NCBI GenBank assembly: GCA_032718475.1
Contig: JAUCBJ010004510.1
Location: 1-64,000, forward strand
Direction: 5' to 3'
Origin: Nemertoderma westbladi
Lineage: Eukaryota > Animalia > Xenacoelomorpha
Length of the DNA: 64,000 bases
Shown here: positions 3,337-38,465 of the stretch, piece after piece
How the letters are laid out: the number at the start of each line of letters is the position of its first letter
Numbering within the stretch: position 1 is the stretch's first letter
The notes under the pieces: model-generated
Seen by the model: only the letters and a program-made list of their open reading frames with translations
Database searches by the model: none
What the model was told of the DNA's origin: nothing
Translations under genes and position numbers: made by a program

Positions 3337-3813
3337 ATGGTGAACTTCTGAAAAAAAATTAATTGGCAAAGATCAGCCACCGTAAATACAATATCATTAA
3401 GTTTGGGGGAGGGGCAAGTCACTGAATTACGTCAATCAATACATGGATAGGTGCAGTTGTGCGTCTAACTTTAATTAATAATAGTTTTGGTGGGCAATTT
3501 GAATAATATGAATAAAGTTGCTAAGCTGCATTTCATCATTACACACATTATATCGGTACAATGACAAGTCCCCAAAAGGTGCCACCCTGCTCCATAGTGC
3601 GTGAAATTCAAATGATTGAAAGACCTGTAATTTGTACTGGAAAGGGTGGCAGATCAGATCTGCCACCTATATTTTGGCGGTAAATTCAAATCTGTTTTAA
3701 CATTGTATACATGAATAGAGTAAGACTAATAATGTAATTCATTGAATCAGAATAAATTATTTCTTATCGGTTTAACTCACTCATTCGTTACTGTTGTTGT
3801 TTTATCTATCTTG

Positions 3814-4167
3814 GGACTTCGAGCAGCACGTGAACAACTAAGCTGAATGGTTAACTAGTCTTGGACTTCGAGCAGCACGTGAACAACTAAGCTGACTGGT
3901 TAATTAGTCTGGGACTTCGAGCAGCACGTGAACAACTAAGCTGACTGGTTAACTAGTCTTGGACTTCGAGCAGCACGTGAACAACTAAGCTGAATGGTTA
4001 ACTAGTCTTGGACTTCGAGCAGCACGTGAACAACTAAGCTGAATGGTTAACTAGTCTTGGACTTCGAGCAGCACGTGAACAACTAAGCTGAATGGTTAAC
4101 TAGTCTTGGACTTCGAGCAGCACGTGAACAACTAAGCATACTGGTTAACTAGTCTGGGACTTCGAGC
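3814..4167 (+). repeat. 49-bp tandem repeat (about 7 copies; 2 inverted copies at about 4450-4550)
   Basis: Unit GGACTTCGAGCAGCACGTGAACAACTAAGCTGAATGGTTAACTAGTCTT, each containing CACGTG. Confidence 0.9.
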
Positions 4168-4655
4168 AAAATTGAAAATTGAGGAGGGTGGGGGCGGGGG
4201 GGGGGGGGGGTCGGGTGATTTGGCTTAACTTCTATTTCAGTAAAATCTAAAGAACATTTATTATTTGCTTGTATCAGTTATAATTACATCAGAACATTAT
4301 AATTATAACAATTATACACTTATACCTAGTATATTAATAGTAGATTTCAAGTAGATAGATGATAGAAAGGCACAGTGAATTGATATATTTTTGGCGGTTG
4401 ATTCAAATTACAGAATTATCATATTTCCATTACAAACTGTACACAGTCCCAAACTAGTTAACCAGACAGCTTAGTTGTTCACGTGCTGCTCGAAGTCCCA
4501 GACTAGTTAACCAGTCAGCTTAGTTGATCACGTGCTGCTCGAAGTCCCAGAATAGATAAAACAACAACAATAACGGATGAGTGAGTTAAACCGATAAGAA
4601 ATAATTTATTCTGATTCAATGAATTACATTTAGTCTTACTCTATTCATGTATTCA

Positions 4656-7600
4656 TGAATAAAACTCACAGGTCTGGTAATACATTAGACTTGGTATTGA
4701 CAAATTGTGATAACATTTCATTAATTAGAAATGTAGCCATCCATGATATTGGATTATCTGACCATTTTGCTATACATTTTAATTTAAACATTTCGAAACC
4801 AAAGTTTTCTGTAATTAACAATAAATTTCGTAAACTTCGATCAATTGACATGGACAAATTTGTATGTGATGTAAAAGACAGTGAATTGTTTAATTCGAAT
4901 TTTACTGATGTGAATGAACTAGTCGCATTTTATGACAACAGTCTTCGTAAAATTCTAGTCCAACATGCGCCTCTGCAAAATAAAAAATCTTCCACTCGTG
5001 TCAATGTTCCTTATAATAATGATATTGCTAAAGAAAAACAAATAAGACGAAAAATTGAAAGGAAATCAAGAAAATATATTCTCAAAACAGATAAGGATGC
5101 CTATAGAGATCAATGTCTCAAAGTTTCCGATTCCATCAAATTGGCAAAAGAAACGTATTTTAGAAAGTCATGGAAGAGAACAGTGGAAATCAGAAAAAGT
5201 TATTTTCTGTAGTCAGTGAATTAATTTCAGGCAACGAGAGGAAAAAGTTACCACAGTTTGATACTGAATCCGAAATGGAGTTTGCTGATTTCTTTGATGG
5301 TAAAGTATCAGGAATTCGTGAGGTTTTAGAAACTAATACAGATTTTACTGTTAACGATTGTGATCAATATCCGGTATATTCAGGTGAAAAGTTCAATGAA
5401 TTTACATCTGTTTCTCATGATGATGTTAAAGAATTATTGAATGATTCGAAACTTAAAACTAGTTGCAATACCCCTTTGCCATCATCAATGTTGAAATGCT
5501 GCATGGGAGTTTTGTTACCAATCTTTGTGTTAATAATTAATTTGTCTTTCACAATGCCAACAGTACCTACACTTTTAAAAAACGCCATTCTTAATCCACT
5601 TCTCAAAGAAAGGTTGCTGAATGTAGAGATTCTTAATAACTTCCGTCCGGTATCCAATCTTGTATTCTTATCCAAAATTGTAGAAAAAGTAGCAGCAAAT
5701 CAGCTAATACACCACATGAACTTGAATTCTCTTTACGAACCGTATCAGAGTGCATATAGAAAATATTACAGCGCCGAAACAGCAAGGCTACGCGTATCAA
5801 ATGATGCCTTGCGAAGCATCGATGATGGATCGGCAGTCTTATTAATAACATTAGATTTAAGTGCCGCATTCGATACTGTTGGCCATCATAAGTTATTGTC
5901 GATTTTAGAAAACGAAATAGGAGTTACTGGTCCAGCGTTACAGTGGTTCGAATCTTATCTAACCGATCGATCACAGCAAGTACGAATAGGAAATTAATTT
6001 TCTGAACAAAAAAGATTACGATTCGGAGTTCCGCAAAGATCAGTGTTGGGACCACTGCTCTTTAACATTTACACAAGATCTTTCTTTGTCGACCGTAATT
6101 AAGAGACACAACCTATCATATCACCTATCAAAAGCAAAAGCAAACAGTCGGCCGAAGCCGGAGGCGACCCGAAGGCTCCTCTTTCGATAGCTGCTACCCG
6201 AGGGTAGGGGTGGGCGCTACTCCTATCCCAAGATTTGCTCCCAGTTATTGACTGGTTATTGACTGGTTATTACCAGTTATTACCAGTCAATATCACCTAT
6301 ACGCAGACGATACTCAGATTTACATCGCGTTTAAGCCATCTACAGTAACTTTGATGAAACAGTTCGAGTCTCACAATGTTGCCTTAACGATATACAGTGC
6401 TGGATGAATAAGAACCTATTAAAAATGAACACTGATAAAACTAAGATACTAATTCTTAAATCTCGGTTTGGCCGCCTTATTGAGAGTCCAGGTATGCAAG
6501 TCTGTGACGATCTCCTCAAATTCTGTCCATTTGCTAGAGACATCGGTGTTTTAATTGGCGAGCATCTTACTCTCGAGAAACAAATCAGTGAAGTTGTGCA
6601 GACTTCTTTTTATCACTTGAGAAATATATCTAAGGTTAAACGTTTTTTTCCCAGACGTGATCTTGAAATCTTAGTTCATGCGTTTATTTCCTACAAGTTA
6701 GATTACAACAATGCACTATATTATGGTCTACCACAACGGAGTATTAGGAAACTACAGTACGTACAAAACAGTACTGCTCGATTACTCTGCAATGTTAATA
6801 AAATAGATCATATTACCCCTGTGTTGAAAAAACAACACTGGTTGCCAGTTCCTTGCAGAATCAACTTTAAGATTGCTGTACTGGTATTTAAATGTCTTAA
6901 TGTAATGGCGCCTACATATCTTAGTGAATTAATATCTTTGTACGGTCCAACCCGTGAATTACGTTCTAGTAATACAATGTTATTGTCTACACAAAGTTAC
7001 AATATTGAAAATTACGGTAGACGTGCATTCTCTGTAGCCGCCCCTTTGGTATGGAATTCGTTACCGAATGACATCAGAAACACTTCCAGTTTATTGTCCT
7101 TCAAACATTTGTTAAAAACTCATTATTTTATTGGAGGTTTTATTTAATATTTTATTGCCTCTGATTTTATTTATTTTATTTTATTTCATTTCATTTCGTT
7201 TTATTTCTATTTTTATTGGTTTTGTATTTTGGTAAATTATTTTTAAAATTAATCTTTAAGAAAAAATTAAAAGTGCCGTTTGAATTGTTATATTTATGTA
7301 TCATATATATATATAATATTTTTATTTACTTGATATTGGTATTGTTTTTCTCGTATTATTGATTTTTAACCATGGAATGATTGTTGTTTTATTTATATGT
7401 TATTTTTATGTTCTCATGTATGTTTTTAATACCCATAGGATGGAATATTTACTAAAATCTCAATTTCGTAACGATTTTTATTTTATTATGAACTACATAT
7501 TTTTACTGCAAATCTAGTGCAATCTATTAAATATTTTATATTATAGTCAGTTTTTATGCAATTCATGTTACATTAATCTGTATGTATGGTGTATTCTACG

Positions 7601-7669: not shown

Positions 7670-8219
7670 TATTCAATGTTAAAACGGATTTGAATTTACC
7701 GCCAAAATATCTGATCTGCCACCCTTTCTAGTACAAATTACATGTCTTTCTATCATTTGAATTTCCCGCGCTATGGAGCACCTTTTAGGGACTTGTGGTA
7801 CCGGTACCATGTACAGTACAGCAGTACTGCTGTATTGCTGTGCTACAGTAGTTGACAGTTTGATGGTATCTTTTGTAGTTCACAGCTGCACCGTACTGCC
7901 GTACCCGTAAGTGATAGCAATAAGCAATAAGTTTAATAAATTTCAGGACCTGGCAGCCTGGTTCCTGCCTCCTGACCTGATAAGTTGATTCTAGTTTTAT
8001 CCAATATCTGAATATTATTGACCTATAGCGATGTACAATGTAGCGGCTGTAATGTTTTTATACCCGTAGTTGATGCCCTCAGTTGATGCGACGATACTTG
8101 TATTTGCGCGGGCTCAGCCGGTTACCGGTGGCATGGTCAGATGGTAGATTGCTCGACGACGACCTCCCCACCCTCATGTATCACTGTATCCTGTCGTCTC
8201 GTGGTACACGGATGAGAAA

Positions 8220-8440
8220 ATGACATATTCTTACAAAGATTATTTTGATTCTTCCAAATTTGTCATTTTGGCAACTGGCGCTCTGTTCTTTTACATAATA
8301 TATGGATACGTTCAAGAGTTAATATTCCAACAGGATGAATTCCACTTACATGGATGGTATTTAACACTGGTGCAGTTTTGTTTCTATAGTTGTTTTGCAC
8401 TTTCGTTAAAGTTTAGCGGCTTTTCAAAAGGAGAACGCAG
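8220..8440 (+). CDS. SLC35B3: PAPS transporter 2, coding exon 1
   Basis: FFYIIYGYVQELIF...GWYLTLVQF matches PAPST2; donor CGCAG|GTAGGT (phase 2). The start codon could lie in an unseen upstream exon. Confidence 0.85.
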
Positions 8441-9091
8441 GTAGGTAACTCAGTAACTTTAATACCTGAATACCAAATACCGGTACCTATCGGTATGTAG
8501 GGCGTAGGGCCGTAGGGGTAGCGGTGACTACCGGCAACTGGAATAATCTTCATTATTATTATACGTACCCCCGTATCGTTACATATGTGCTTATGTAGAG
8601 TTTTATGGGAACATGCCATGTGATATTTTGTCCTGCGAATGGTCGTTAGCTACTGCGTCATATTAGGTCAGGTTTAGATATGAACCCAGTTTAAATGATG
8701 GATGCCGTTCGCGTCGAATAAATATTAACACTTTGTTAGGTTTTTAGGGTCTACAGTCAGACAGTAAGCCACGATTCTAAATATAATAATTTTCTTTATC
8801 ACATGGCCATTTCTTGTATGAACATACGTCATCAGTGATATAAATACAAGGGCCTATACGAGTACAAATTAACATTTTTTTTTAGAAAATTAATTTACTA
8901 TAATAGATAATAGAATTACCGGTAGTAGGCCTTCCTAGATACACAGTTATCATAAAGTGGAACTTAATAAATATACTGTAGAAGATACTAATTTGTCTGT
9001 TAATGTTGAAAAAAAAAGGAAATAAAAGATAGATATACATCCACGTAAACTATATAGAAGCTGAAACCAACATATATTATTATTGTAACAG

Positions 9092-9246
9092 GATTCCTCT
9101 ATCCGATTACATAATCCTAGCCGGTTTCACTCTCACAACAATGGGGTGCAGCAACACGTCAGTGGGGTACCTTAATTATCCAACCCAGGTTATATTCAAG
9201 TCGTGTAAACTCATTCCGGTAATGATCGGAGGTGCACTCATTCAAG
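9092..9246 (+). CDS. SLC35B3: PAPS transporter 2, exon 2 (155 bp)
   Basis: AG|G ATT CCT; translates RIPLSDY...TMGCSNTSVGYLNYPTQVIFKSCKLIPVMIGGALIQG; donor GTTCGT. Confidence 0.92.
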
Positions 9247-9757: not shown

Positions 9758-9865
9758 GAAAGCGTTACACTCCGGTTGATGTAGCCGCCGTACTCTCGAT
9801 GACTATAGGAATTATATTTTTCATTCTCGCTGACAATTCTGTTCAATCGGAATTTAATCCAAAGG
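9758..9865 (+). CDS. SLC35B3: PAPS transporter 2, exon 3 (108 bp)
   Basis: GKRYTPVDVAAVLSMTIGIIFFILADNSVQSEFNPKG; TAG acceptor, GTTAGT donor, frame-consistent. Confidence 0.9.
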
Positions 9866-10263: not shown

Positions 10264-10361
10264 GTGTTATTTTGATATCAACGGCCTTAGCAAGTGATGC
10301 ACTTATCGGAAATTTTCAAGAAAAGTCAATGAAAAGATATGTGGCTCAAAATACTGAAGTT
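10264..10361 (+). CDS. SLC35B3: PAPS transporter 2, exon 4 (98 bp)
   Basis: GVILISTALASDALIGNFQEKSMKRYVAQNTEV; CAG acceptor, GTTAGT donor (phase 0). Confidence 0.9.
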
Positions 10362-10735
10362 GTTAGTTTTATAGTTTAATATATAATTATAATTTATTAT
10401 TTTATAATTAAATTATTAAGAATAATGGAAATTTCCCGGTATCACATTTAGGTTAGGCAATCACTTTTGGTTTGTAATACAAGTGTAATAAGTATAATAA
10501 TATAAGAAGTTAAAATTGAATGACATCTGAATATGAAAGCTGGACATTTGTGTCGTTGCGTCATTACATTGTCAATATGACAGAGCAGACAGTTGGCGGT
10601 TGTAGCAAATAATTCAATGCGGATTAACTATTTAATGGCTTAATATACATTTGCAAATAACAGCTGTTTACTCGCAAAAATAAAACTGTAACCTGTTGTA
10701 TTGACTTTATTTATTATTTTGGTTCAAATAACCTA

Positions 10736-13700
10736 CCTTATTAACTCTTACCTTTTCTAATGCAGGTACTCTACAGCCCTTATTAACTCTTACCTTTTCT
10801 AACGCAGGTACTCTACAGCCCTTATTAACTCTTACCTTTTCTAACGCAGGTACTCTACAGCCCTTATTAACTCTTACCTTTTCTAACGCAGGTACTCCAC
10901 AGCCCGTATTAACTCTTACCTTTTCTAACGCAGGTACTCTACAGCCCTTATTAACTCTTACCTTTTCTAACGCAGGTACTCTACAGCCCTTATTAACTCT
11001 TACCTTTTCTAACGCAGGTACTCTACAGCCCTTATTAACTCTTACCTTTTCTAACGCAGGTACTCCACAACCCTTATTAACTCTTACCTTTTCTAACGCA
11101 GGTACTCTACAGCCCTTATTAACTCTTACCTTTTCTAACGCAGGTACTCTACAGCCCTTATTAACTCTTACCTTTTCTATCGCAGGTACTCTACAGCCCT
11201 TATTAACTCTTACCTTTTCTAACGCAGGTACTCTACAGTCCTTATTAACTCTTACCTTTTCTAACGCAGGTACTCTACAGCCCTTATTAACTCTTACCTT
11301 TTCTAACGCAGGTACTCTGCAGCCCTTATTAACTCTTACCTTTTCTATCGCAGGTACTCTACAGCCCTTATTAACTCTTACCTTTTCTAACGCAGGTACT
11401 CTACAGCCCTTATTAACTCTTACCTTTTCTAACGCAGGTACTCTACAGCCCTTATTAACTCTTACCTTTTCTAACGCAGGTAGGTACTCCACAGCCCTTA
11501 TTAACTCTTGCCTTTTCTAACGCAGGTACTCTACAGCCCTTATTAACTCTTGCCTTTTCTAACGCAGGTACTCCACAGCCCTTATTAACTCTTACCTTTT
11601 CTAACGCAGGTACTCTACAGCCCTTATTAACTCTTGCCTTTTCTAACGCAGGTACTCCACAGCCCTTATTAACTCTTACCTTTTCTAACGCAGGTACTCT
11701 ACAGCCCTTATTAACTCTTACCTTTTCTAACGCAGGTACTCTACAGCCCTTATTAACTCTTACCTTTTCTAACGCAGGTACTCTACAGCCCTTATTAACT
11801 CTTACCTTTTCTAACGCAGGTACTCTACAGCCCTTATTAACTCTTACCTTTTCTAACGCAGGTACTCTACAGCCCTTATTAACTCTTACCTTTTCTAACA
11901 CAGGTACTCTACAGCCCTTATTAACTCTTGCCTTTTCTAACGCAGGTACTCTACAGCCCTTATTAACTCCTACCTTTTCTAACGCAGGTACTCCACAGCC
12001 CTTATTAACTCTTGCCTTTTCTAACGCAGGTACTCTACAGCCCTTATTAACTCTTACCTTTTCTAACACAGGTACTCTACAGCCCTTATTAACTCTTGCC
12101 TTTTCTAACGCAGGTACTCTACAGCCCTTATTAACTCCTACCTTTTCTAACGCAGGTACTCCACAGCCCTTATTAACTCTTACCTTTTCTAACGCAGGTA
12201 CTCTACAGCCCTTATTAACTCTTACCTTTTCTAACACAGGTACTCTACAGCCCTTATTAACTCTTGCCTTTTCTAACGCAGGTACTCTACAGCCCTTATT
12301 AACTCCTACCTTTTCTAACGCAGGTACTCCACAGCCCTTATTAACTCTTGCCTTTTCTAACGCAGGTACTCTACAGCCCTTATTAACTCTTACCTTTTCT
12401 AACGCAGGTACTCCACAACCCTTATTAACTCTTACCTTTTCTAACGCAGGTACTCTACAGCCCTTATTAACTCTTACCTTTTCTAACGCAGGTACTCTAC
12501 AGCCCTTATTAACTCTTACCTTTTCTATCGCAGGTACTCTACAGCCCTTATTAACTCTTACCTTTTCTAACGCAGGTACTCTACAGCCCTTATTAACTCT
12601 TACCTTTTCTAACGCAGGTACTCTACAGCCCTTATTAACTCTTACCTTTTCTAACGCAGGTAGGTACTCTACAGCCCTTATTAACTCTTGCCTTTTCTAA
12701 CGCAGGTACTCTACAGCCCTTATTAACTCTTACCTTTTCTAACGCAGGTACTCCACAGCCCTTATTAACTCTTACCTTTTCTAACGCAGGTACTCTACAG
12801 CCCTTATTAACTCTTACCTTTTCTAACGCAGGTACTCTACAGCCCTTATTAACTCTTACCTTTTCTAACGCAGGTACTCTACAGCCCTTATTAACTCTTA
12901 CCTTTTCTAACGCAGGTACTCTACAGCCCTTATTAACTCTTACCTTTTCTAACGCAGGTACTCTACAGCCCTTATTAACTCTTACCTTTTCTAACGCAGG
13001 TACTCCACAGCCCTTATTAACTCTTACCTTTTCTAACGCAGGTACTCTACAGCCCTTATTAACTCTTACCTTTTCTATCGCAGGTACTCTACAGCCCTTA
13101 TTAACTCTTACCTTTTCTAACGCAGGTACTCTACAGTAGTGTTGAGAACTGAATCAATTTTGACTAATTTCAGTTACAGTTACAGTTTCAGTATTCAAAG
13201 TTTTGCATTTCAGTTACAGTTGCAGTTTCAGTATTCAAAGTTTTGCATTTCAGTTACAGTTACAGTTTCAGTATTACAAAGTGTAACATTTCAGTAACAG
13301 TTACAGTTTCAGTTTTACAAAATTGAGCATGTCAGTTTCAGTTATAGATTCAATATATATGATCTCACGTAGTAAGCAGTCATCTGAAACTAAAAATGAG
13401 GCACTTTAATATATTACTGTAATATACGCTAATAATAATGTTCATTACGAAACGTCCTCTTTCTAGAGCTAATAGGTAGTTGTTGTAGGAAAGTTGGACC
13501 CACTCTATGGTAATATTTTGTAACCAATATACTGATAGTATGTAATGAAAGTGGCACGTCACAAGATCACACTAAGGCACCCACATTTTACTGTACATCT
13601 TGTTTCAGTGCTTGTACACTTATTGTTATCATTTATTGTTTTGGTTATAAAGCCATGGTACTGAATCCTGCTCATTTTCCTTAATTCGTAATTTGTTTTA

Positions 13701-16700
13701 GTAATCATATATTTATTGTTTTGGTTAGACCCACCTCGATAAGCTGCTCCTTTCACTTTTAAGTTTAATTTTGTAATTTATAATGGTAAACTTGATCAAA
13801 ATTTAATTTCCAGTGTGCCTCTAGTGTGATTGTGATATTAATAGTACCGGTAAAAACATTAATAATTAATAATGTAAAATCCGTTAATATCCCTCTACCA
13901 TTAGGCCTAACTTTTCTTTGTTTATCTAAAACATTTACATTTAATATGAAGCCAAAGTGGTGATAAGGCTGATAGGTGATAGTCTAATAGTTGAGACAGA
14001 TAAACATAGACTTTATGCTACTGTAGATCTTCGTTCACTACTTGACTCGCCAAATAAATCACATTTGAGCTAAGTGGACAATGGGTCTTTGATTTTATAT
14101 TGTGTAATATTATGGTTTTGTTCAGAAGTGGAAAAAACGAGATTGTTTTTTTTATAACAATGTTTTAAAAATGATACCTATGGTAACCACTGTTATTCAT
14201 TTATTAAACTATACTCTATACTTTATTACAATACTGTTTTAAATGCTCATTCATGTTAATTGTGTGATTGAGAACTGAATCGGATTTTGTTAATTTCAGT
14301 TTCAGTTTCAGTTACAGTATTCAAAATACGTAATTACAGTTTCAGTTACAGTTACAGTATTCAAAGTTCGCAATTACAGTTACAGTTATAGTTACAGTAT
14401 CAAAAAAATCATCAAAACCATTCAGTTACAGTTGCAGTTACAGTATAATTACAGTTACAGTTCTCAACACTACTCTACAGCCCTTATTAACTCTTACCTT
14501 TTCTAACGCAGGTACTCTACAGCCCTTATTAACTCTTACCTTTTCTAACGCAGGTAGGTACTCTACAGCCCTTATTAACTCTTGCCTTTTCTAACGCAGG
14601 TACTCTACAGCCCTTATTAACTCTTACCTTTTCTAACGCAGGTACTCCACAGCCCTTATTAACTCTTACCTTTTCTAACGCAGGTACTCTACAGCCCTTA
14701 TTAACTCTTACCTTTTCTAACGCAGGTACTCTACAGCCCTTATTAACTCTTACCTTTTCTAACGCAGGTACTCTACAGCCCTTATTAACTCTTACCTTTT
14801 CTATCGCAGGTACTCTACAGCCCTTATTAACTCTTACCTTTTCTAACGCAGGTACTCTACAGCCCTTATTAACTCTTACCTTTTCTAACGCAGGTACTCT
14901 ACAGCCCTTATTAACTCTTACCTTTTCTAACGCAGGTAGGTACTCTACAGCCCTTATTAACTCTTGCCTTTTCTAACGCAGGTACTCTACAGCCCTTATT
15001 AACTCTTACCTTTTCTAACGCAGGTACTCCACAGCCCTTATTAACTCTTACCTTTTCTAACGCAGGTACTCTACAGCCCTTATTAACTCTTACCTTTTCT
15101 AACGCAGGTACTCTACAGCCCTTATTAACTCTTACCTTTTCTAACGCAGGTACTCTACAGCCCTTATTAACTCTTACCTTTTCTAACGCAGGTACTCTAC
15201 AGCCCTTATTAACTCTTACCTTTTCTAACGCAGGTACTCTACAGCCCTTATTAACTCTTACCTTTTCTAACGCAGGTACTCCACAGCCCTTATTAACTCT
15301 TACCTTTTCTAACGCAGGTACTCTACAGCCCTTATTAACTCTTACCTTTTCTAACGCAGGTACTCTACAGCCCTTATTAACTCTTACCTTTTCTAACGCA
15401 GGTACTCTACAGCCCTTATTAACTCTTGCCTTTTCTAACGCAGGTACTCTACAGCCCTTATTAACTCTTACCTTTTCTAACGCAGGTACTCTACAGCCCT
15501 TATTAACTATTGCCTTTTCTAACGCAGGTACTCTACAGCCCTTATTAACTCTTACCTTTTCTAACGCAGGTACTCTACAGCCCTTATTAACTCTTACCTT
15601 TTCTACGCAGGTACTCTACAGCCCTTATTAACTCTTACCTTTTCTAACGCAGGTACTCTACAGCCCTTATTAACTCTTACCTTTTCTAACGCAGGTACTC
15701 TACAGCCCTTATTAACTCTTACCTTTTCTAACGCAGGTACTCTACAGCCCTTATTAACTCTTACCTTTTCTAACGCAGGTACTCTACAGCCCTTATTAAC
15801 TCTTACCTTTTCTAACGCAGGTACTCTACAGCCCTTATTAACTCTTACCTTTTCTAACGCAGGTACTCTACAGCCCTTATTAACTCTTACCTTTTCTAAC
15901 GCAGGTACTCTACAGCCCTTATTAACTCTTACCTTTTCTAACGCAGGTACTCTACAGCCCTTATTAACTCTTACCTTTTCTAACGCAGGTACTCTACAGC
16001 CCTTATTAACTCTTACCTTTTCTAACGCAGGTACTCTACAGCCCTTATTAACTCTTACCTTTTCTAACGCAGGTACTCTACAGCCCTTATTAACTCTTAC
16101 CTTTTCTAACGCAGGTACTCTACAGCCCTTATTAACTCTTACCTTTTCTAACGCAGGTACTCTACAGCCCTTATTAACTCTTACCTTTTCTAACGCAGGT
16201 ACTCTACAGCCCTTATTAACTCTTACCTTTTCTAACGCAGGTACTCTACAGCCCTTATTAACTCTTACCTTTCTAACGCAGGTACTCTACAGCCCTTATT
16301 AACTCTTGCCTTTTCTAACGCAGGTACTCTATAGCCCTTATTAACTCTTGCCTTTTCTAACGCAGGTACTCTACAGCCCTTATTAACTCTTACCTTTTCT
16401 AACGCAGGTACTCTACAGCCCTTATTAACTCTTACCTTTTCTAACGCAGGTACTCTACAGCCCTTATTAACTCTTACCTTTTCTAACGCAGGTACTCTAC
16501 AGCCCTTATTAACTCTTACCTTTTCTAACGCAGGTACGCTACAGCCCTTATTAACTCTTACCTTTTCTAATGCAGGTACTCTACAGCCCTTATTAACTCT
16601 TACCTTTTCTAACGCAGGTACTCTACAGCCCTTATTAACTCTTACCTTTTCTAACGCAGGTACTCTACAGCCCTTATTAACTCTTACCTTTTCTAACGCA

Positions 16701-16965
16701 GGTACTCTACAGCCCTTATTAACTCTTACCTTTTCTAACGCAGGTACTCTACAGCCCTTATTAACTCTTACCTTTTCTAACGCAGGTACTCTACAGCCCT
16801 TATTAACTCTTACCTTTTCTAACGCAGGTACTCTACAGCCCTTATTAACTCTTACCTTTTCTAACGCAGGTACTCTACAGCCCTTATTAACTCTTACCTT
16901 TTCTAACGCAGGTACTCTACAGCCCTTATTAACTCTTACCTTTTCTAATGCAGGTACTCTACAGC
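10736..16965 (+). repeat. 42-bp minisatellite made of the exon-5 splice acceptor (about 116 copies), interrupted by a hAT element
   Basis: Unit CCCTTATTAACTCTTACCTTTTCTAACGCAG|GTACTCTACAG. First AG at 10764-10765; last AG at 16952-16953, which leads into exon 5. The copy number comes from span arithmetic after removing the insertion and small indels. Confidence 0.95.
13137..14472. mobile_element. Non-autonomous hAT-type DNA transposon (1336 bp)
   Basis: 15-bp TIR TAGTGTTGAGAACTG / CAGTTCTCAACACTA; 8-bp TSD CTCTACAG (13129-13136, 14473-14480); subterminal CAGTTA/CAGTTT repeats; no transposase ORF. Confidence 0.88.
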
Positions 16966-17046
16966 TACGGAATAGCTTTTCTATATTTATTGGTTATTCT
17001 TATACTTAATGGGGAACTATTGGAGTCATTCTCCTATTTTGGAAAG
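16954..17046 (+). CDS. SLC35B3: PAPS transporter 2, exon 5 (93 bp)
   Basis: VLYSYGIAFLYLLVILILNGELLESFSYFGK continues exon 4 in frame; donor AAG|GTAATT. Confidence 0.9.
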
Positions 17047-17271: not shown

Positions 17272-18441
17272 ACCTTTATCTATTACAGCGACCCTTTAGG
17301 AACTACGGTCTCACCTTTATCTATTACAACGACCCTTTAGGAACTACGGTCTCACATTTATCTATTACAGCGACCCTTTAGGAACTACAGTCTCACCTTT
17401 ATCTATTACACCGACCCTTTAGGAACTACAGTGTCACCTTTATCTATTACAGCGACCCTTTAGGAACTACGGTCTCACCTTTATCTATTACAGCGACCCT
17501 TTAGGAACTACGGTCTCACCTTTATCTATTACAGCGACCGACCCTTTAGGAACTACGGTCTCACCTTTATCTATTACAGCGACCCTTTAGGAACTACGGT
17601 CTCACCTTTATCTATTACAGCGACCGACCCTTTAGGAACTACGGTCTCACCTTTATCTATTACAGCGACCCTTTAGGAACTACGGTCTCACCTATATCTA
17701 TTACAGCGACCCTTTAGGAACTACGGTCTCACCTTTATCTATTACAGCGACCCTTTAGGAACTACGGTCTCACCTTTATCTATTACAGCGACCCTTTAGG
17801 AACTACGGTCTCACCTTTATCTAATACAGCGACCCTTTAGGAACTACGGTCTCACCTTTATCTATTACAGCGACCCTTTAGGAACTACGGTCTCACCTTT
17901 ATCTATTACAGCGACCCTTTAGGAACTACGGGTCTCACCTTTATCTATTACAGCGACCCTTTAGGAACTACTGTCTCACCTTTATCTATTACAGCGACCC
18001 TTTAGGAACTACGGTATCACCTTTATCTATTACAGCGACCCTTTAGGAACTACGGTCTCACCTTTATCTATTACAGCGACCCTTTAGGAACTACGGTCTC
18101 ACCTTTATCTATTACAGCGACCGACCCTTTAGGAACTACGGTCTCACCTTTATCTATTACAGCGACCCTTTAGGAACTACGGTCTCACCTATATCTATTA
18201 CAGCGACCCTTTAGGAACTACGGTCTCACCTTTATCTATTACAGCGACCCTTTAGGAACTACGGTCTCACCTTTATCTATTACAGCGACCCTTTAGGAAC
18301 TACGGTCTCACCTTTATCTAATACAGCGACCCTTTAGGAACTACGGTCTCACCTTTATCTATTACAGCGACCCTTTAGGAACTACGGTCTCACATTTATC
18401 TATTACAGCGACCCTTTAGGAACTACGGTCTCACCTTTATC
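17272..18441 (+). repeat. 41-bp minisatellite made of the exon-6 splice acceptor (about 28 copies)
   Basis: Unit ACCTTTATCTATTACAG|CGACCCTTTAGGAACTACGGTCTC. First AG at 17287-17288, last at 18407-18408. Confidence 0.95.
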
Positions 18442-18590
18442 TTCAGTATTACCGGCTACATTGGTGTTAACTTCGTTCTCAGTATTGTCAGCAACTACGG
18501 CGCGCTATTGGCTGTATCCGTGACGACAATAAGGAAGGTGGTTACCATTCTCTTATCGTTTATTATGTTTACAAAACCATTCACCTTACA
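18409..18590 (+). CDS. SLC35B3: PAPS transporter 2, exon 6 (182 bp)
   Basis: RPFRNYGLTFIFSITGYIGVNFVLSIVSNYGALLAVSVTTIRKVVTILLSFIMFTKPFTLQ; donor GTGAGT. Confidence 0.9.
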
Positions 18591-20115: not shown

Positions 20116-20362
20116 ATATATATGGTCCGGCAGCATTGTTATGTTTGGAATACTTCTCAGTGTTTATTCGAAGAATAGATTGGCATTCAGTCGCTTCCTT
20201 AATCGCTGCTATACAACTTCAATACGCACTAATTGCTGCATTCTATCTGTAATGGCGATTAATTTACGAGGAATTTGTGTTCGGTTAACTTCACAATTAC
20301 AACAGGAATTTACTTTAAGATATAAACAGTCTCCTATTGGCGGCACTGAATTCGTGGTATAA
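20116..20362 (+). CDS. SLC35B3: PAPS transporter 2, last exon (total CDS 1104 nt, 367 aa)
   Basis: TGTAG|A TAT ATA TGG gives QYIWSGSIVMFGILLSVYSKN..., stop TAA at 20360-20362. Confidence 0.88.
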
Positions 20363-20954
20363 TATTTTATTTTTAATTATATCTAAATACATTAATATTA
20401 TTTTATTAAATTTCCCTATAGGCCTAAATGCGACCAGACTGGAGAGCTAAGTTAATATTATTGTAACCGCAGTGTATTTGAACCGTCCCAATAATATTTA
20501 AGTGCAAATTATGTGTCCGCTAACTGTGTGCAATATTTTACCAATGCTAAAAGGGGTTTTTTTTAATTAGCACTTGACCTCAACGCAAATTAGCCTTTTA
20601 TGAAGCCGAATATACTTATAGTCCCAAGTGCAAAATTCATCCCTCTCCAGGGGAAAATGAAAATCGACCCAAATAACAGATGTTTACTCTCAAAAATAAA
20701 ACTGTAACCTGTTATATTGACTTTGGTTTATTGTTTTGGTTGGAATAACGTGTCGTTGCTGATTTGCTTGGCCACCCTCCCCGTGTTACCTAGAGCAGTA
20801 AAGTGTACAATTACTTCTCTATAGAATATACAGTGTTGTACATTAATTGATTTATACAGTGCAGTCCATATTCAATGTGATATGTTTCATCTAGAGTTAC
20901 AATCAAGTAAATGTTATTAATATTTCGGAATATAACATTATAAATTTCACCATC

Positions 20955-22963: not shown

Positions 22964-25900
22964 CTAGTCATCCAGTTGGCATAGTAACGCAACACCTCGT
23001 TTTATCCAATGTTCCACGGGTCGATCGGTTTTTAGAAGCATTTGTAAGACAAAGTTTGTTGAATGTCCCGTTGTACTCAATGTCCCCTTACGTTCGCTGG
23101 TTTTATAACAGGGACAGGCGTACTCATTCGCTGTGACTAGTTCGTCTTTCTTTACCGGTTTGATCCAGATAATGGGTACGGGATCGAATAGAACCTTGGG
23201 ATGGGACTCAGCAAGCAGTCCGACCTTCCGATCCCATCGACAACCGTCGAGGAATAATCCGTTCACATAGACACCGTCCTCGGGGAAGTGGTCCGATGTC
23301 TCTTGGGGCAGCACCTTGAAGGAGTAGGTGAGTTTATCGATAGGAATCACGTATTTCCTCGCGTAGTTCTGAAGGGCGCCTGTGAGGAAAGCTTGGGTGA
23401 AGAAGAACCCGCTGATCCAGAATACTTTAGGTTTATTTTCCTCGAACCACCGCTGGAGAAAAGCGAGTCTTACCAACAAGTCCGATATGAAACTCCCCAA
23501 TGGTTTCAGTGATGGGTAAGATCTTTTCGCCCACAACGCTGGCAGTTTTCCCACCATGAGGCTGTAAGACAATTGCTCCAATTCCGCATTCATAACGACC
23601 AAACCTTTGATTGCTTTCAGGAGGTTCTGCAAACTCGATCGTATACTCGTCAATAGATTATTGAATCGTTCCATTTCTTGTACCAGAACAGTATTCATGC
23701 TCTCGTTGTATCGCACCGGGTACTTATTCTGCGCGATCTCGAGGTTGTAGTTATCGGGTAGTTTCGCGAGGATGTCGTTGGCGATGTTTGTGAGAAGTTG
23801 ATCTGTTTCACTCTGCTTGCCACCGCCCCCACTTTGCCCTTGAGTCACCAAAATGTTATCCAGAAGTTGTTTTGTTTCTTGCAACTCTCGTGAGATACTG
23901 ACGTTGTCATGCATACCGAACACTTCCGGTTCCTGATTAGTTGGCAGCTCTTTTATAAACTCGACATATTCTTCGTAGGTCTCTCGCTTCGGGGCATAGT
24001 ACAGACCGCTGGGAGAGAATTTATACTTGGGGTCGGTGACCAGTGAGGGGTTGTAAAAGTCCGCCAGTATTGTGGTGAGTGTCCTTCTGTCCCAGTCGTC
24101 TGTCACCCTACCACCGTAGTTACATTCTCCGGTGAGGTAGGTTATCGCTTCGTAAGGCAACTCTTCGTAATTGTTAATAAACAACTGAAGTTGCCTCACT
24201 GAAATTCGCAAATCGCTTTCATTGAATCCGTATGCGATATTCCAACCCAAAGGACCGAATTTTCGTCTTTCCTGCACTAAGGCGTGGAAGAAACAAAGGC
24301 CGTACATTAATTTCTCAAACTCAAATTCTTTCCCGACGCATCCAGTAAAAAACGACTCATCAGATAAAGGATCACTCAGGTAGGACTGCAGGAGATTTTG
24401 ACGTAGACCAGTGGGCGGTTCATTTGTCATTTTCACGCTATTTTGTAGAACTGTAACAGGGAACTTGGGACTTGGATAGCTGGTCAACCACAAACGAAAC
24501 TCTGAGTTCACCTCGTCGGGGTTGAAAGCTGCGCATATTCGTTCCAGACTAGTCATCCACGATGTTGCTAGATGGCAGTTTTGCAAGCAAACCCAGGATC
24601 CATCTTGTTTAGCCTTTTCTATAAGTTTCGAAGCAACCGGACCTTGACCTTGGCCTAAAGATATTGCGTTGAATTTATCGCCGGAAAATCCTTTATCCCC
24701 CGCAAACTTAAGAAGAGCAGCCATGGGGTCAGCTCCCGGACTGAGGACGAAAACCAAAGGAATAACAGCACTGGAATCGACATAACTTTTAGCCAAATCG
24801 AATGGAGGTGGTCGAACAAATTTACTCCCTAACTTTTCCATGACGAAGTTAATTACTCTTGGAAGGATTTTATCGGGCCTTATAACCCTCAATACAACCA
24901 GTTTCTGGAATTCCTGCAACTTTCCGGCCCATGGATTTGGTAATTGCGCTTTGTGCGGCTCTTTCTGCTCATAGAAATGTTTCCACGGTGGGATATCGTC
25001 ACATAAGCTGTCCCGAATACCTTTAAAGCTTGGCAAATCATCTAGTCGACACAATTCATCCCAACTCTTATCTGACAACCACGAATTATCAGGATTAGCT
25101 AGTTTATTCTCCAAACCTACCCCACCTGTGAGGAAAAATTTCAATTCAGCAGGGTCCATTTCTTTTTTATGGAGGAGTAGATTGGAACACAAAACGAATG
25201 AAAAAATTAACTTATCCTTTTCAAATAATGACCTGCATACATTGCTATAAAGATTGTAGGTAAAATGATCCGACAGATAGCGCAGCCTCTTATCCAGAAT
25301 TTTACTTTTGTTACTGTCATGGATGCTGTTGATGAAGAGATTAATGAACCAGGTTAACGCGTATTGGTACATAGGATCAATGTTTCCAAGATCGGCAATT
25401 GAGAAGAATAGGATGCTCGAATGAATAGCTACAGGTTTATAACCCTGTCGAGCAATCTCAATCTTTTTCTGAGTTTCCTCAGCGACCTTCTGTTTTTTTG
25501 AGATATCATCACTAAGAATCTTAGAGGAGTCAAGAATTTCGATTGCAGATTCGTCCTCTAATATATTTCCTTCCTTACTCAATGTTTCAAGGATTTTATC
25601 TTCAATCTCTTTCAATGTTTTCTTGTTCGTAGCTGATTGGATAATAAGACTCTGTCTGTCATCTTCAAGCTCAGGACGTTCTTTTGCAACAACTATCCCC
25701 AAAAGCTGATCTTGCAAGCCTTCTGGCGTTATCATAAAATTAAGTAAAGTAACTTTCACTGCCGTTTCAGGTAAGTAGTGGGGGTTTCTTAATTTTGTTG
25801 TGATATAAAACCTGAAATCTTGACTGTATTCTATAATGTTTTCTCCAAGTCGAATACACTCTACACCGCTTTGCTTAAACGTCTGTTTTAGAAGAAGTGG

Positions 25901-28900
25901 CTCCAATGAGGGATCGAGATCTTCTCCAATATTTTCCAATAACAGGGGGTTTCCAAATTGTATGCAGTTCTCCAAATTCCTCATATAATCAGGGTCAGTA
26001 AACTTTATAACCGATAATTGCTTGTCCTTCTCCATATTTTTGACCCATTTGTTTGCCTGGCCTTGGGGGTCAATCATCAATGGCCATCTTCTGGTGTTAT
26101 CCACAATAACGCCATTGTCTATTGAGAAGTTGTCTGTGGGCAAACCGGCAATATTCCAAGCGCGAATTTTAATAGGTTCTCCCAGAGTGTTACTCAGAGA
26201 ATATCCTTCTGAACAAGGTATCTTCCTTTTGACGCATTCCTTAGCCCAAGTTTCAGAACAATCATTCCTATAACTTGCTGTAAAGGCACCAAGATAAGCA
26301 ATAACTGCCGATGATATTAAAACATCACCCGGTAGATTATCATATGTTCTTTGCAGGTTTGCTGCCGCTGTGGTCCATCTATCCTTTTCACCTCCCAAAC
26401 CTCCAATCAATTTCTCAGCACGAATCAACTTTTTACCACACAAATCCACTTGAAATTCCAATTCTTCCTTTTTCTTCGTTGTCTCGGCAAGGTCTCTGTG
26501 TAATGCGGCCAATCTCTCCTTGATGGCTGCTAGTTCAGCACGTTTTGCATTGAGTTGTGACGTGGCCTGCGATAGCATCAGTTCCGCCTCAGCCAATTTT
26601 AATTTCTTAGGAGCCACAACTTTTGCAACACGATCGTAGATCTCCATAGCTCTGACCCATCTACAAAGACCTTCTGCAGCACTGCTAGCCTTAGCCACCT
26701 TTTCAGGCACGAATTCTGTGTTTGATATGTATTCGGTTCGAATCTTCTTCATAACAGGAATGGGAATGTTATCCTTATCATATGTTCTTAACGAAGCTAA
26801 AAAATTCATGTCACCAAGTAACTTCTTACTTGGGCCCCAGTAATCTTCAATCTTTTTGCCTGAACCAGAGGGGTCAGGAATACGGTCTGGCTTTATCTCT
26901 TGCATCACACATACGGATTCCATGACCAGTTTCACACCATGAGGGGGATTTTTCATGGATTTCACTATCGATATATCAGCTGGTTTGAGAGTATCCAAGG
27001 CAGCCAGAGCAGCTTCTAGTGCCGGTATTGCTTCTGCAAGATCTGCTTCACATTCACTCTTCAGTGCCTGGGCTTCGGCTGCCTGTTCATTTACAATTGC
27101 TTCCTCTTTAGCAACAAGTTGACTCTTTGCTTCCACTTCAACTGACTCAGTTTCTATCACAACAAACATTTTGGCGTTTTCATCTGCTGTAATAACTAAC
27201 TGTGGTTTTAATTCTTCTAATTCAACCTGCATTTCAGCAACTTGAGTTGATGCAAACGCCAATTTTTCCAATCCAACAATGTACCTTCGTTTCGCTTTCA
27301 TCACTTCCTCCTGTTTCAGATGAAGTAGCTTTTTAAACGATCCAATTAGTTCGAGGTAGGATGTTGGAGTGACATAGTTGTGGCGCCCAAGTTCGTTCAG
27401 AAACTTTTCCGAGAGATCAGAGGCGCTGGTGTGGAAATATTTACACAATGTGACAATCTCCCCCCTTTCTTCATCTTCAATTTCGACATTTTCCAAAAAC
27501 TTATTAGCTACACGTTCCAAAGCATCCACAGGCCATGCTTGAAACCAGTCAATTGTGCAACAATTAATTAATGATGGAAATTGTCGCATTCTATTGCGAA
27601 ATGCATCACCAATAGGCGAGAAAGCAATTACAATATGCAACTTTTCCTTAACTTGATTGACAAAGAAATTAAATAATGCTAAAGGGGAGAATTCAGCATT
27701 TTTGTCGCCAGCTGCTAAGAGTGCAGCTGGGCGGACAGTTTCTAAAACATCCTGTTTTTCATCTGGGGCATAAAGATTAGGAACTTCACCAGTATTCAGA
27801 AGATTGTCAATGTCTTCGAGAAAACTCTCGTATTTTATTTGTGTGTCAGTTACCAATAAAATTGTCGGTTTCCCAACCGCGCCAGCCTGCTTCAAGACGA
27901 CTTTCAGATCTTCCCTCCACTCCACTGGACCATACTGTTTGGTTATCTCTGGTTGAAAAATGTTGAAACCCGACATAAACCCAGCCAATCGTGTCAGGGA
28001 TTGGCGCCCGCTGCCTCCAACCCCAACCAATAATGCATTTCCTCCAGGTTGCTTCAAAATTCGACTAATTCGTGACAAATGTTCCAGAACATACCTAAAA
28101 ATAACTAAATTCATTTTAGCTTTGTTCACTTGGTTGTATTCATCCAATTGATGTTCTGAAATTTTGTTGAATTCTTCGATCTCTACAATCTCTTCATAAA
28201 CACGCTCGTCAATATCACCATCTGGATTCATATAATCTCCAAACATCAATGACCTCATGTCATCTTCAACCACTGACCGTCGTTCACCTCTTAAATTTTC
28301 AAAAACAGCATCGAATGATTCTTTGAAGTGGTCCTTGACGAGACTTTTTACCAGGTTGAAGAGCCAAGTTCTATCATTATCATCAATAAGCCTATCATAA
28401 AACACTCGGTAGACCTCATGAACCCAAAGTTTTGTGTAGGTCCGTTTATTTTCTACAGACTGCTTCTTAATTAGAGTCACTCCATTGATTACCCTAGAAA
28501 AGTCTCTGAGATTGAAAACGTAATGAGATTTTGCAGGTGTTGGAAGGAGGTTACTCGTGGCTGCCTTGTAAACATCCATTGTGGCTGCAACTATAATTTG
28601 GCCAACCAAGTAAAAATCTGGGCTAAATTCTTCTTTTTTGAAATATAGTGTGCAAATATTTGTGAATATTTTAACCATGGCGTCATCACTGAATGGATTC
28701 ATGGCGATTATATTAAAATGGCGCATAAATCTAGGTGTGACAGCATTTTTCCCACCTGCTGGAGGTCCCATTGCCGCAACGAAAAGTAAATCAACGAGAG
28801 ATAATTTTGATGTTTCTTTAAGATCATACCAATTTTTGTGGTCGAAATATTGGCGCAACAACTCAATAGGTGGTTGAGCACCATAGATTTCTTTAGCTGG

Positions 28901-31900
28901 CATATTCATATCGTCCACAAATATAATGGACTTCTTACCAACTGGTGGTCCATAAATTCCCTTACGTCTTTTATCCAACTTGGACATAATTAAGTTCTGA
29001 ACTTGATTAGCGCTTGTTTGTGCGGAAAAGTTAACAAATAGAGGAACAAAAGTGTCTTTGTCGAGATGATTCATAAGTTTGTCTTTAACATAGACACTCT
29101 TGCCAGTTCCCGTTGGGCCTACAAATAACGCAGCCCTATTGTTTTCCACACACTGACTCAAGAGATATGTGTACCGTGCTGTATCAACAGTTGGCACAAT
29201 TATTTCATTTAGTTTCATTTTTGGGCTGGCCACCTCAATTTTTTTGATTGTCTCATTCCAATGCACCCACCGTCCTCTGTTCTTAGCCTCAAACATGTAA
29301 TGGTAAACTTGCCCAGTATCGGGGAATGGTACATCAATTTTACCAACCTCAGAAGGAATTTGAGGTAAATCTTTATTTTTGCCTTCAAAAATTTCACGAA
29401 GATATGCATCGAACTTTTCCATTCCATCACTGTCTGTTGTTGCGCCTACTGACCATGTTAAAGAGAAGAAAAATATTGACACCATCCAATTCTTAAGATA
29501 TTTGCTGCTACGATTGTCTTCATTAGCATGCTTGGACATTAGAATGTCGTAAAAGTACATGAGGGACCTCACAAGGTTGATAGAGCTTGTCTTAACAAGT
29601 TCTTTACATGTGGTTTTAATGAATCTAATACATGGATCCACAAGCCATTCAAACATCGCTCTTATCAATTTCTCATAATCCTTATTCATCACCTCAGGAA
29701 GTTCATGTAGCCAGGACTCAAATATCGGTCTCCATCCGAGGCTTTCTGGTTCCATGTAAATCATACCGCATCGACTTACAGTAGCCGGAGATGCCTGAGA
29801 AAGATCATCTGTCTCAAACATTAGCGACATGGCATTGGACATCTGAATAATCTCACCGGACATCAAACACAACTTCTTGTTATCATCCAACACTGTGTTC
29901 ATCGATTCAATCCACAGTGTATCTATGGGACCATCGAATACGACCCACTTTCTATCAGGCGTGTCGGTGGATGCAAACTCTCGGAATGTGTTCGCTACAA
30001 CTCCATCTGTCCACTCATGGGAGACCGGATCGAACTGACCAAACAGTTGGCCCATAGTGACTGCCTTGGGATTGACAATCCGATAAATGGCCTTATTTTC
30101 TTCCATTTGACCACGTTCATTTAGCTTTGCTAACATATTAGCTAGACATTGGATGACACATGTTTTTCCAGCAAACGGTTCACCAACCAACATGAAGCCA
30201 TGCCGTACAACCATCATTTCGTATGTTTGTATAAGTTGCTCCATAAAACTTGGAACAGGTTGCAGCTTCATCTCCGCACATGCTTCGCGGGCAGCTGTTA
30301 AAAATTCTCCATAATCAGGTTCAGGCATTACAACTCCGGGAAACAAATCAGAAATAATACCATTGAACAATGGAATATCGTGTGATAAAAATTTTGGCAG
30401 GTTGACGTCAGTTATAGACCTCAGTAAAAGTATATCTTCATTTTGTTCAGGAAATGTTAATTTCAGATTTCCAGCAGCTATTAAAACAGCTTTGACCGCT
30501 CGCATTCCATAATCATAATGAAATTGGCTAGAAAGTTGCTCGGAGCATAGCCTATATGTCATGACAATTTTAACAGCCAAATTTCTAGCATCAAGAAAAC
30601 CGCATGAATATAGAGATATCTCAGCAATCAAAGCATAGTCTGGAACCATCATCGCTACTGTGCGAAACAGGACTTTAAGATTGTCTGGCAGTTCAGAACG
30701 TCCTGCATATCCTGGATTCATTGTAATAGCAACAAAACAATTAGGATTCAAATCAATTTCCGTTCCCTCAAACATGAAACGATCGAGACCATCTTGAACA
30801 GCCCTCTGAATTGCCAAAATTTGCTGGGCAACAACAGACAATACCTCCAGTTCAATGCGATTGAATTCATCAAAGCAAGCCCAGGCGCCGGCTGAAGCCA
30901 AACCTTTAAAAAATTTACTCATGGCCAAATAGTCCAAACCGTCACTACAGTTGAACACCACACATTGGACAGCTAATGCTTTGGCTAAATCTTTAGTTGT
31001 TTCAGTTTTCCCTGTGCCCGCTGGTCCTTCTGGAGCACCTCCTAAATTAAGGTTAAATGCACCAATCAAAGTGCGATAACATCTATCAGTGAGCGGTGTG
31101 ATAACTAGCCTAGGTGAATTCCCAAGGTATTCGTAAGCATACTTACAATTGGCATTGATAATTTTAACTCGGCAATTATCATTCTCCCAATAGTATCGCA
31201 ACTGTGACAACCACTTGAAATCATTTTCAGAAGTCACCCCAGCTTTAGTAATAGATTCAACTACATCCCTAGCATGAACATCAATAGTTACCAACGCCCC
31301 TAATGTTATTCGAGTCTGTTTCTCCAATTTACCTCTTACCATTTCAACAATATCTCCCAGTTGTTTCATCAACGCATCATAAAAGGGACCCAAGGCGTTG
31401 TCATTGATAGCTTGATGGACGTCCTGTGTCCAGAAAATTTGAGATACACACAAGACAACCTGACCTGGCCATTCTCTGGTCCACTGCGGTCTACTAGGAG
31501 TTAATAGATATGCATCTATCGATTTCTCAATAACATCACGGACTGACTGGAGCATGACGTCTTGAACTTGTAGCAGCCACTTTTCAACAGCACCCCGAGC
31601 TTCGGATGTGGAAATTACAGTTGACAACTTCACCTTTTCGCCTTCACTGCTAAACATTGCAGTGATATCTAAGCTTGGTGTAAATTCGAGCTTGGCTACA
31701 CCCTCAAAACATTTCTTCAGATGGGGCTGAACTCTTGTGGGATCTTTAGTTTCAGACAGAATTTCTAACATTTCATCGTTTGAGAGAAAGAAAAACCGAG
31801 GAAAGAATAGTCGTTTCTTCTCAAGGTAAGCATTAAGCCCCTTAAGAATTTTCTCAAGAAGTTCGTTCGCATCTTGTAGTCTTTCCAATAATCCAGCGAG

Positions 31901-34891: not shown

Positions 34892-35252
34892 TATAATTAT
34901 TTTACACTCAAAGTATAAAAATATAATGAGTTTTTAGTTTAAAGAATTTATAGGTGGATATATTCGTTGTATGCAATAACAATTAAGTTTTAAACCAATA
35001 CAATTTGTAAATAATTCCAGCGCAATTTTAATAAAATTATTCAAATAAATTTAAAATAAAACCACATTATTCTATTTCGTAAGGTCATCAAAAGGTTATT
35101 TTTAATTAGCAAAATACAACTTAGTGATCTAAACACAAAATTCGATAATAAATATGTTAATTCTCTTAGCTATAGTATGGCGATTTATATTAAACACCAT
35201 GTTAATTGTTAACAATTGCTAATTTTTTAGCTAGTGTATTGTATTTGTCGTA

Positions 35253-38235: not shown

Positions 38236-38465
38236 TGTGTAACACGAGTTCAGTTGTAGCAGCAGAACCAAAGGCTACCTGAAAGGCTACAGGGCGCGAC
38301 AACAAGGTAGCCTTGCGCAGACACAATTAATTACTGTAGATAAGGAGTAGGTAGTTGCACATGTAAGTTATTTTGAATGGTTTCGTCTCAGTAAGATGTT
38401 CTAGAATATCTGTTCAACTAATGGAAACCATGCCCGTCCTTAATTACTAATCAATCCAATCTAAA

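Follow-up and report, generated by a model that had tools for sequence, protein, structure and literature searches.

The acceptor of coding exon 5 in an SLC35B3/PAPST2 gene, found in the window of 64,000 nucleotides that we analysed, is the last of 116 CAG|GTA acceptor copies arranged head to tail between positions 10736 and 16965. Judging from the sequence, this array is probably an intronic minisatellite of which the spliceosome uses only the final copy, the other 115 being silent decoys removed with intron 4. Its 42-bp unit (TRF period 42, score 6912) joins 30 nt of intron end, made up of TTAAC (with its A at -22), a pyrimidine tract and CAG, to the first 12 nt of exon 5. The AG is intact in every unit and AG|GT is found in 116/116, while GGG is absent from the unit. 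The majority sequence is matched exactly by 68 of the 116 units (mean 0.6 differences), and the units fall into 19 types whose order forms a pattern, part of it duplicated as a block; two units carry a single-base deletion, and four, at 11480, 12660, 14554 and 14936, read CAG|GTAGGT through a 4-nt AGGT duplication, a strong donor motif coming straight after the full acceptor; the first of these lies at 11477..11485 (forward strand). A transposon-like insert divides the array into 57 copies on the left (10736..13136) and 59 on the right (14473..16965), both on the forward strand. The last of these is the genuine exon-5 acceptor (AG at 16952-16953, exon start at 16954) and the sole copy reading VLYSYGIAFLY. 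Intron 4 (10362-16953) thus measures 6,592 nt, and would measure 404 nt if reduced to one unit. These counts bear out what a sequence-only reading of this DNA had reported, namely about 116 copies of the exon-5 acceptor, a unit of TTAAC, pyrimidine tract, CAG and exon-5 head, a copy at 16953 that alone continues into YGIAFLY, and the expansion of an intron of about 400 bp to 6.6 kb. Weighing against last-copy use, transcription would reach the first decoy acceptor 404 nt past exon 4 and would need another 6.2 kb to reach the genuine one. Open frames of up to 413 aa, found across the array by an ORF scan, were rejected as genes and are a by-product of the 42-bp period.

The host gene, which would encode a transporter of the sulfate donor PAPS, is assigned to SLC35B3/PAPST2 of the UAA family by PF08449 (UAA) and by its best named matches, without a tree against SLC35B2. 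PF08449 was found in five of the seven exons (1-4 and 6), the named matches obtained with exon 2 were PAPS transporter 2 or hypothetical/UAA proteins, and identity to the top 25 PAPST2 matches is 55-59%. The reading frame is intact, with seven GT-AG exons and all 12 splice sites preserved, giving a 367-aa ORF without a stop. All on the forward strand, these are exon 1 (8220..8440), exon 2 (9092..9246, also placed by named homologs), exon 3 (9758..9865, also by homolog alignment), exon 4 (10264..10361, ending in phase 0 with donor GTT|GTTAGT), exon 5 (16954..17046, 93 nt, phase 0-0, donor AAG|GTAATT), exon 6 (18409..18590, 182 nt) and exon 7, which runs to the stop codon (20116..20362) and was placed by homolog alignment, its final C-terminal ~50 aa being without homolog support. 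The numbering counts coding exons seen in the window, and a non-coding exon further upstream is possible. Introns 1-3, which are free of arrays, measure 398-651 nt. Among 91 full-length homologs, 87 align with no indel at the exon 4/5 junction and 79 at the exon 5/6 junction. The possibility that a new intron is being born was rejected, since alignments to homologs cross the junction with no repeat in it and array 1 sits within a GT-AG intron that already exists.

The intron following that of array 1 holds a second array, absent from the earlier reading. Array 2 (17272..18441, forward strand) consists of 28 copies of a 41-bp unit that includes the exon-6 acceptor and extends 33 nt into exon 6, and is flanked by a 10-nt direct repeat, ACCTTTATCT. 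The AG is intact in 26 of its 28 units, 25 of these intact AGs lying upstream of the true one, and GT follows the AG in 0/28; each of the 27 upstream starts runs into an early stop. Because of these stops and the lack of GT after the AGs, a working gene would need last-copy choice at array 2 without any AG|GT route.

Array 1 shows typical minisatellite turnover, homogenised in blocks. Position -5 is C in 113 of 116 units and T in both end units and one other, and a 15-unit block with five variant units is present on both sides of the insert, an arrangement that 0/300 permutations reached. Distinct changes among units number 16 in array 1 and 11 in array 2; none of the former (P=0.46) and two of the latter (P=0.10) hit the AG, giving no sign in either array of selection against decoy AGs. 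The insert itself, a non-autonomous DNA transposon-like element of 1,336 bp (13137..14472), has perfect 15-bp terminal inverted repeats (TAGTGTTGAGAACTG) and an 8-bp target duplication (CTCTACAG). Short inverted repeats with an 8-bp duplication are what we take to be the hallmark of non-autonomous hAT elements, and the label of hAT insert given to it earlier is supported to that extent. It contains no ORF of 100 aa, and no second copy was found within the window. The structure appears to be young, since the first unit of array 1 matches the last at all 42 nt and the inverted repeats and target duplication of the insert are perfect, and because the array looks young, the intact ORF is not proof of present function.

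An 80-bp dispersed-repeat fragment (10654..10732, forward strand) ends 3 nt before array 1, and other copies, 88-90% identical, lie at 20670-20749 and 56794-56874. The window is prone to minisatellites: in an XPD intron of 5,630 nt, only 58 nt lie outside an array, and that array contains no junction copy. The repeated occurrence of arrays at acceptors hints that pyrimidine tracts may seed minisatellites. Positions 27001-34799 and 47201-51199 of the window were covered by the tandem-repeat and ORF scans only.

Taken as exon starts, all 115 upstream acceptors of array 1 lead to a premature stop before exon 5, as the sequence-only reading had claimed, although the stop falls at its codon 7 in only 110 of them. 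The remaining five stop later, the copy cut by the insert at codon 9 and the four AGGT-duplication copies, which shift into the open frame of the unit, at codons 141-407. The stop is the TAA inside the branch motif, and two of the three frames of the unit hold one. Since 57% of local intronic 30-mers (1213/2128) also hold a stop in a given frame, the stops in array-1 units need no special explanation, and we rejected the stop codon as a designed feature. The earlier statement that any upstream choice makes a poison exon is accordingly accepted in part: premature stop on inclusion, the mark of a poison exon (AS-NMD), is found in 115/115 cases, yet it is expected by chance, and AG|GT units could still give a normal mRNA by recursive or nested splicing.

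The array would have originated in one tandem duplication across the acceptor, followed by unequal exchange or slippage. If only the last copy is used, the adjacent acceptor would be favoured by pairing across exon 5 with its strong donor, 93 nt away, and by enhancers in the body of the true exon, and occasional upstream use would yield stop-containing transcripts cleared by NMD. The choice of the last copy in array 2, with its 28 copies before exon 6, would be explained in the same way. Exon size alone would not exclude the four copies nearest exon 5, because they would give exons of 135-261 nt, and their acceptor motif is identical. Masking by RNA structure is unsupported: three array-1 units are less stably folded than their shuffled versions (z +1.77), and neither the last unit with exon 5 (z -0.78) nor array 2 (z 0.04) departs in favour of such a structure. 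The exact exon-5 pattern gave 0 matches in metagenome contigs, and the exon-6 protein pattern gave 595 pattern matches with 0 confirmed. We propose no function.

The presence of AG|GT in every unit raises the possibility, rather improbable in our view, that array 1 deletes itself from the pre-mRNA by stochastic nested or recursive splicing through dual sites, rebuilding the ancestral 404-nt intron. A splice that uses the GT in unit i as donor and the AG in unit j as acceptor would remove j-i units and rebuild an intact one; if it joined the first unit to the last, the 404-nt intron would be recovered with only one acceptor. In a variant of this scheme, recursive splicing would ratchet exon 4 along the four CAG|GTAGGT units. 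The computed collapse product is exact, the unit donor CAG|GTACTC is almost the same as the donor CAG|GTACAC that a gap-free 740-aa alignment suggests for XPD intron 1, and the four variant units share 14 nt with the exon-1 donor region (AACGCAG|GTAGGTA). By a crude count of matches to the nine positions of the U1 consensus, the variants joined to exon 4 would rebuild GTT|GTAGGT with 5/9, the same as the native exon-4 donor, but the donor rebuilt from the standard unit would reach only 3/9. In human UBC, stochastic splicing is described at dual-specific AGGT sites within tandem repeats (PMC10809524), and recursive splicing is reported from introns of widely differing size (PMC10156609). However, the GT of the unit is simply the first codon (Val) of exon 5, use of an internal donor after an internal acceptor would create stop-containing pseudo-exons of 42n nt, and, because array 2 has no GT after any AG, this route is not the general solution.

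It is also possible, although unlikely, that the young expansions damage the allele, causing frequent mis-splicing or exon skipping and a lower PAPST2 output, and that this is tolerated as the allele is rare or the gene partly redundant. The identical end units and perfect inverted repeats and target duplication would then mark a structure too young for the ORF to have decayed; intact decoys number 115 and 25 in the two arrays, four internal donors are strong, and exon 5 (phase 0-0) can be skipped in frame. Against this, two independent arrays and a transposon insertion have built up, with many rounds of turnover, yet the ORF and 12 splice sites remain intact, and comparable lancelet arrays are reported to be harmless (PMC3087553, PMC3902484). 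That the array is a selected regulatory device, in which copy number or splicing-factor levels set the use of poison acceptors and tune transporter level via NMD, is very improbable. It would agree with the premature stop after 115/115 upstream choices and with the arrays at two consecutive acceptors (rough geometric chance 0.09 x 0.14, ~0.013, post hoc), but stops are what chance predicts (57%), the turnover of this young array looks neutral, and a poison exon is usually one conserved cassette. Mis-assembly is common in long near-perfect repeats, and the single-base deletion in two units could be a read error; nevertheless it is barely credible that the assembly process turned a shorter array into this copy number, as 19 ordered unit types, a block duplication, distinct edge units and a clean insert with its target duplication are unlike a collapsed or over-extended repeat.

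Silent copies of a splice site beside the used one have precedents. By their sequence arrays 1 and 2 fit 'mirage' minisatellites, a class already described in lancelets, where they are reported in Adh3, the globins BflGb6 and BflGb9, troponin C and PGBD5 and are said to leave splicing undisturbed (PMC3087553, PMC3902484). As described there, a mirage repeats in tandem the 3' end of an intron with the 5' part of the next exon, and many copies keep their splice signals. Both arrays have head-to-tail units spanning an exon-intron boundary, of 42 and 41 bp, within the minisatellite range of 10-160 bp (PMC3087553) and the 10-72 bp given for lancelet Adh3. Concerted evolution that excludes the border units, which PMC3087553 reports for mirages, is seen in array 1. 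Copy numbers are 116 and 28 here, compared with 3-6 in lancelet BflGb6. Unlike the lancelet mirages, array 1 has every AG intact and a transposon-like insert inside it, and is known from the DNA of one haplotype; judged by its XPD, 62% identical to that of Branchiostoma, the host does not seem to be a lancelet. Among the matches listed for XPD exon 1, identity reaches 65% at most, and all those with a name are from animals.

Human genes offer further parallels. In CBS 844ins68, also a duplicated intron end and exon start, splicing prefers the distal site and the mRNA comes out normal (PMC1802585, PMC2630376); there, however, the copies are two, and G-runs lying between them, absent from the array-1 unit, promote use of the distal one. 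The 37-bp VNTR of F7 intron 7 is likewise a minisatellite across an exon-intron boundary, and PMC1557585 describes its identical pseudo-donors as functional yet silent, the exon-adjacent site winning. In that account the F7 repeat lies on the donor side and is scanned 5' to 3', and such scanning, applied to a row of acceptors, would favour the first one, which is the wrong copy. The dual-specific AGGT repeats of UBC and VCX3A (PMC10809524) and intron birth by tandem duplication (PMC3265369) share with array 1 a unit with AG|GT, from which whole units could be excised seamlessly. In those cases the repeats form part of coding or exonic sequence and give rise to new introns or variable proteins, whereas array 1 lies inside an existing intron and its units carry stops.

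The value of array 1 is as a test substrate, with 115 near-identical intact acceptors before the true one, the most among the examples compared here, which are not a survey. The classic experiments with duplicated splice sites are reportedly those of Reed and Maniatis. Since an AG|GT array and a GT-less array occupy adjacent introns, one assay could separate first-come scanning, exon-adjacent choice and recursive rescue. If array 1 does delete itself from the pre-mRNA, one gene would hold two solutions to massive acceptor redundancy, with array 2 as a built-in control, and the locus would be a natural ruler for how exon definition discriminates among identical acceptors 42 nt apart.

Our model of the PAPS transporter 2 gene (SLC35B3/PAPST2) joins seven GT-AG coding exons on the + strand (8220-8440, 9092-9246, 9758-9865, 10264-10361, 16954-17046, 18409-18590 and 20116-20362) into a stop-free frame of 367 aa. 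Searched singly against Pfam, exons 1-4 and 6 each match UAA (PF08449) and exons 5 and 7 do not; most exon-2 homologs that carry a name are called 'adenosine 3'-phospho 5'-phosphosulfate transporter 2', and the model shares 55-59% identity with its best 25 matches. Of the 120 homologs fetched, 91 reach 320 aa or more; the exon 4/5 junction is indel-free in 87 of these and the exon 5/6 junction in 79. The stretch from LYSY to KPF is 85 aa long in our model, a length shared by 58 of 64 measurable homologs. Because homologs align across the junctions without indel and the span is kept, a normal protein needs 16954 as the first base of exon 5 and 18409 as that of exon 6. The predicted C-terminus (20180-20362) extends about 50 aa past the homolog-matched region, and an alternative end is possible.

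Intron 4 measures 6,592 nt and carries 116 copies of a 42-bp unit (array 1, 10736-16965), composed of the final 30 intron bases and the initial 12 exon bases; with one unit it would measure 404 nt. These figures bear out the sequence-only reading, which had described about 116 exon-5 acceptors, a unit of branch-like motif, pyrimidine tract, CAG and 11-12 nt of exon, and an intron expanded from some 400 bp to 6.6 kb. The 1,336-bp insert that divides the array into 57 and 59 copies had been called a hAT element; it ends in 15-bp terminal inverted repeats with an 8-bp target duplication, hallmarks from which we presume it to be hAT-like. The further claim that every upstream copy leads to an in-frame stop at codon 7 holds for 110 of the 115 upstream acceptors read as exon starts, the exceptions being one with its stop at codon 9 and four, the AGGT-duplication units, at codons 141-407. 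Such stops need no adaptive explanation, since the codon-7 stop is the TAA within the branch-like TTAAC and stops also occur in two of the three frames of the unit and, in a given frame, in 1213 of 2128 intronic 30-mers of PAPST2. The array has no clear microhomology, and its 5' end adjoins a dispersed-repeat fragment. An 80-bp dispersed-repeat end lies at 10654-10732, 20670-20749 and 56794-56874, the first copy ending 3 nt before the array. The original observation is real, and its description correct save for the five exceptions and a second array that it did not mention.

This second array (17272-18441, +) consists of 28 copies of a 41-bp unit in intron 5; the unit carries the exon-6 acceptor together with 33 bases of that exon. 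The AG is kept in 26 of 28 units, is directly followed by GT in none of the 28, and all 27 upstream starts meet an early stop. A 10-nt direct repeat, common to pyrimidine tract and exon, flanks the array and is a plausible seed for slippage. The rough geometric chance of two consecutive acceptor-spanning arrays is about 0.013, a post hoc figure for a window picked for them.

At its two ends array 1 has units of the same sequence; position -5 is T in these and one other unit and C in 113, and a 15-unit block with five variant units is present on both sides of the insert (0/300 permutations). Such a pattern is usual for a minisatellite that turns over with its borders excluded, and it points to a young array. 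Mutation targeting of the decoy AGs, those of the upstream copies, was not significant in either array (array 1: none of the 16 distinct changes, P 0.46; array 2: 2 of the 11, P 0.10). In both arrays, every insertion of more than one base duplicates 4 nt exactly at the acceptor, AGGT for array 1 (11480, 12660, 14554 and 14936, +) and CGAC for array 2 (17535, 17621 and 18118, +). The AGGT duplication and the change from T to C at -5, which are the two derived changes of array 1, both bring the unit closer to the exon-1 donor.

If PAPST2 works, array 2, which offers no AG|GT escape, needs its exon-adjacent acceptor to be chosen over 25 intact decoys. Most simply, one rule would hold for both arrays, and the exon-adjacent acceptor is likely chosen in each. 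Exon pairing, exon enhancers and clearance of leaky transcripts by NMD are well established: pairing of the true acceptor with the strong donor at the other end of exon 5 (AAG|GTAATT, 7/9 matches to the donor consensus) would favour the last copy, enhancers in the true exon body could help, and leaks from upstream acceptors would be removed by NMD. Against this choice, four upstream copies would yield ordinary exons of 135-261 nt, and the polymerase reaches the true site 6.2 kb after the first decoy. In addition, human CBS 844ins68, a two-copy acceptor duplication with normal mRNA, has G-runs between its sites that help the distal one (PMC1802585, PMC2630376), whereas the array 1 unit contains none.

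Because exon 5 starts with GT, all 116 units of array 1 read AG|GT, and splicing through these sites could contribute materially to removal of the array, as framed by work on dual-specific AGGT repeats (PMC10809524), recursive splicing (PMC10156609) and intron birth through duplication (PMC3265369). We consider this improbable. The in-place unit donor CAG|GTACTC does resemble the inferred donor of XPD (CAG|GTACAC), supported by a gap-free 740-aa alignment, and a splice from the first-unit GT to the last-unit AG would restore the exact 404-nt intron. By a crude count of matches out of nine to the donor consensus, recursive use at the four units reading CAG|GTAGGT rebuilds a 5/9 donor, equalling the native exon-4 donor, but standard units rebuild only 3/9, and internal donors might instead define stop-containing pseudo-exons. 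The same four units match the exon-1 donor (8434-8447) exactly over 14 nt (at 11473, 12653, 14547 and 14929; none in 100 window shuffles); this counts as a single event for which the donor consensus accounts in part, with chance or a short conversion besides.

The window is prone to minisatellite arrays. XPD/ERCC2 (- strand; exons 52678-51743, 46112-45652 and 44024 onward) has a first intron of 5,630 nt (46113-51742), all but 58 nt of it a 20/21-bp-based minisatellite, in which no copies of either intron junction were found. Its exon 1 is at most 65% identical to any match among the matches listed, with no close relative among them. A 21-bp minisatellite of about 37 copies (36647-37418) lies upstream of no recognised exon, and inverted blocks with a 49-bp array, seen by eye at 3700-4630 and 7680-7800, flank a decayed RT-like element (4634-7147) with probable nested insertions. 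An uninterrupted ORF of 3,989 aa (22964-34933, -), a putative dynein heavy chain by its motifs, is unusual as an intronless gene of this size next to intron-bearing ones; the GLTP (37582-38274, -) and Macro-domain (54440-55456, +) genes are also apparently intronless.

In lancelet mirages, the end of an intron and the start of the following exon are duplicated in tandem, over 10-160 bp. Ebner et al. describe their concerted evolution, from which the borders are excluded, and RT-PCR results that suggest normal splicing (PMC3087553); the same account is given for Adh and troponin C mirages (PMC3902484), and the human F7 intron-7 37-bp VNTR is described as a multi-copy donor case with normal mRNA (PMC1557585). 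Array 1 is likewise a tandem repeat of intron end and exon start, its 42 bp within the lancelet range, and likewise shows turnover with excluded borders. By its structure it belongs to the mirage class, in which it is unusual in copy number and not in kind.
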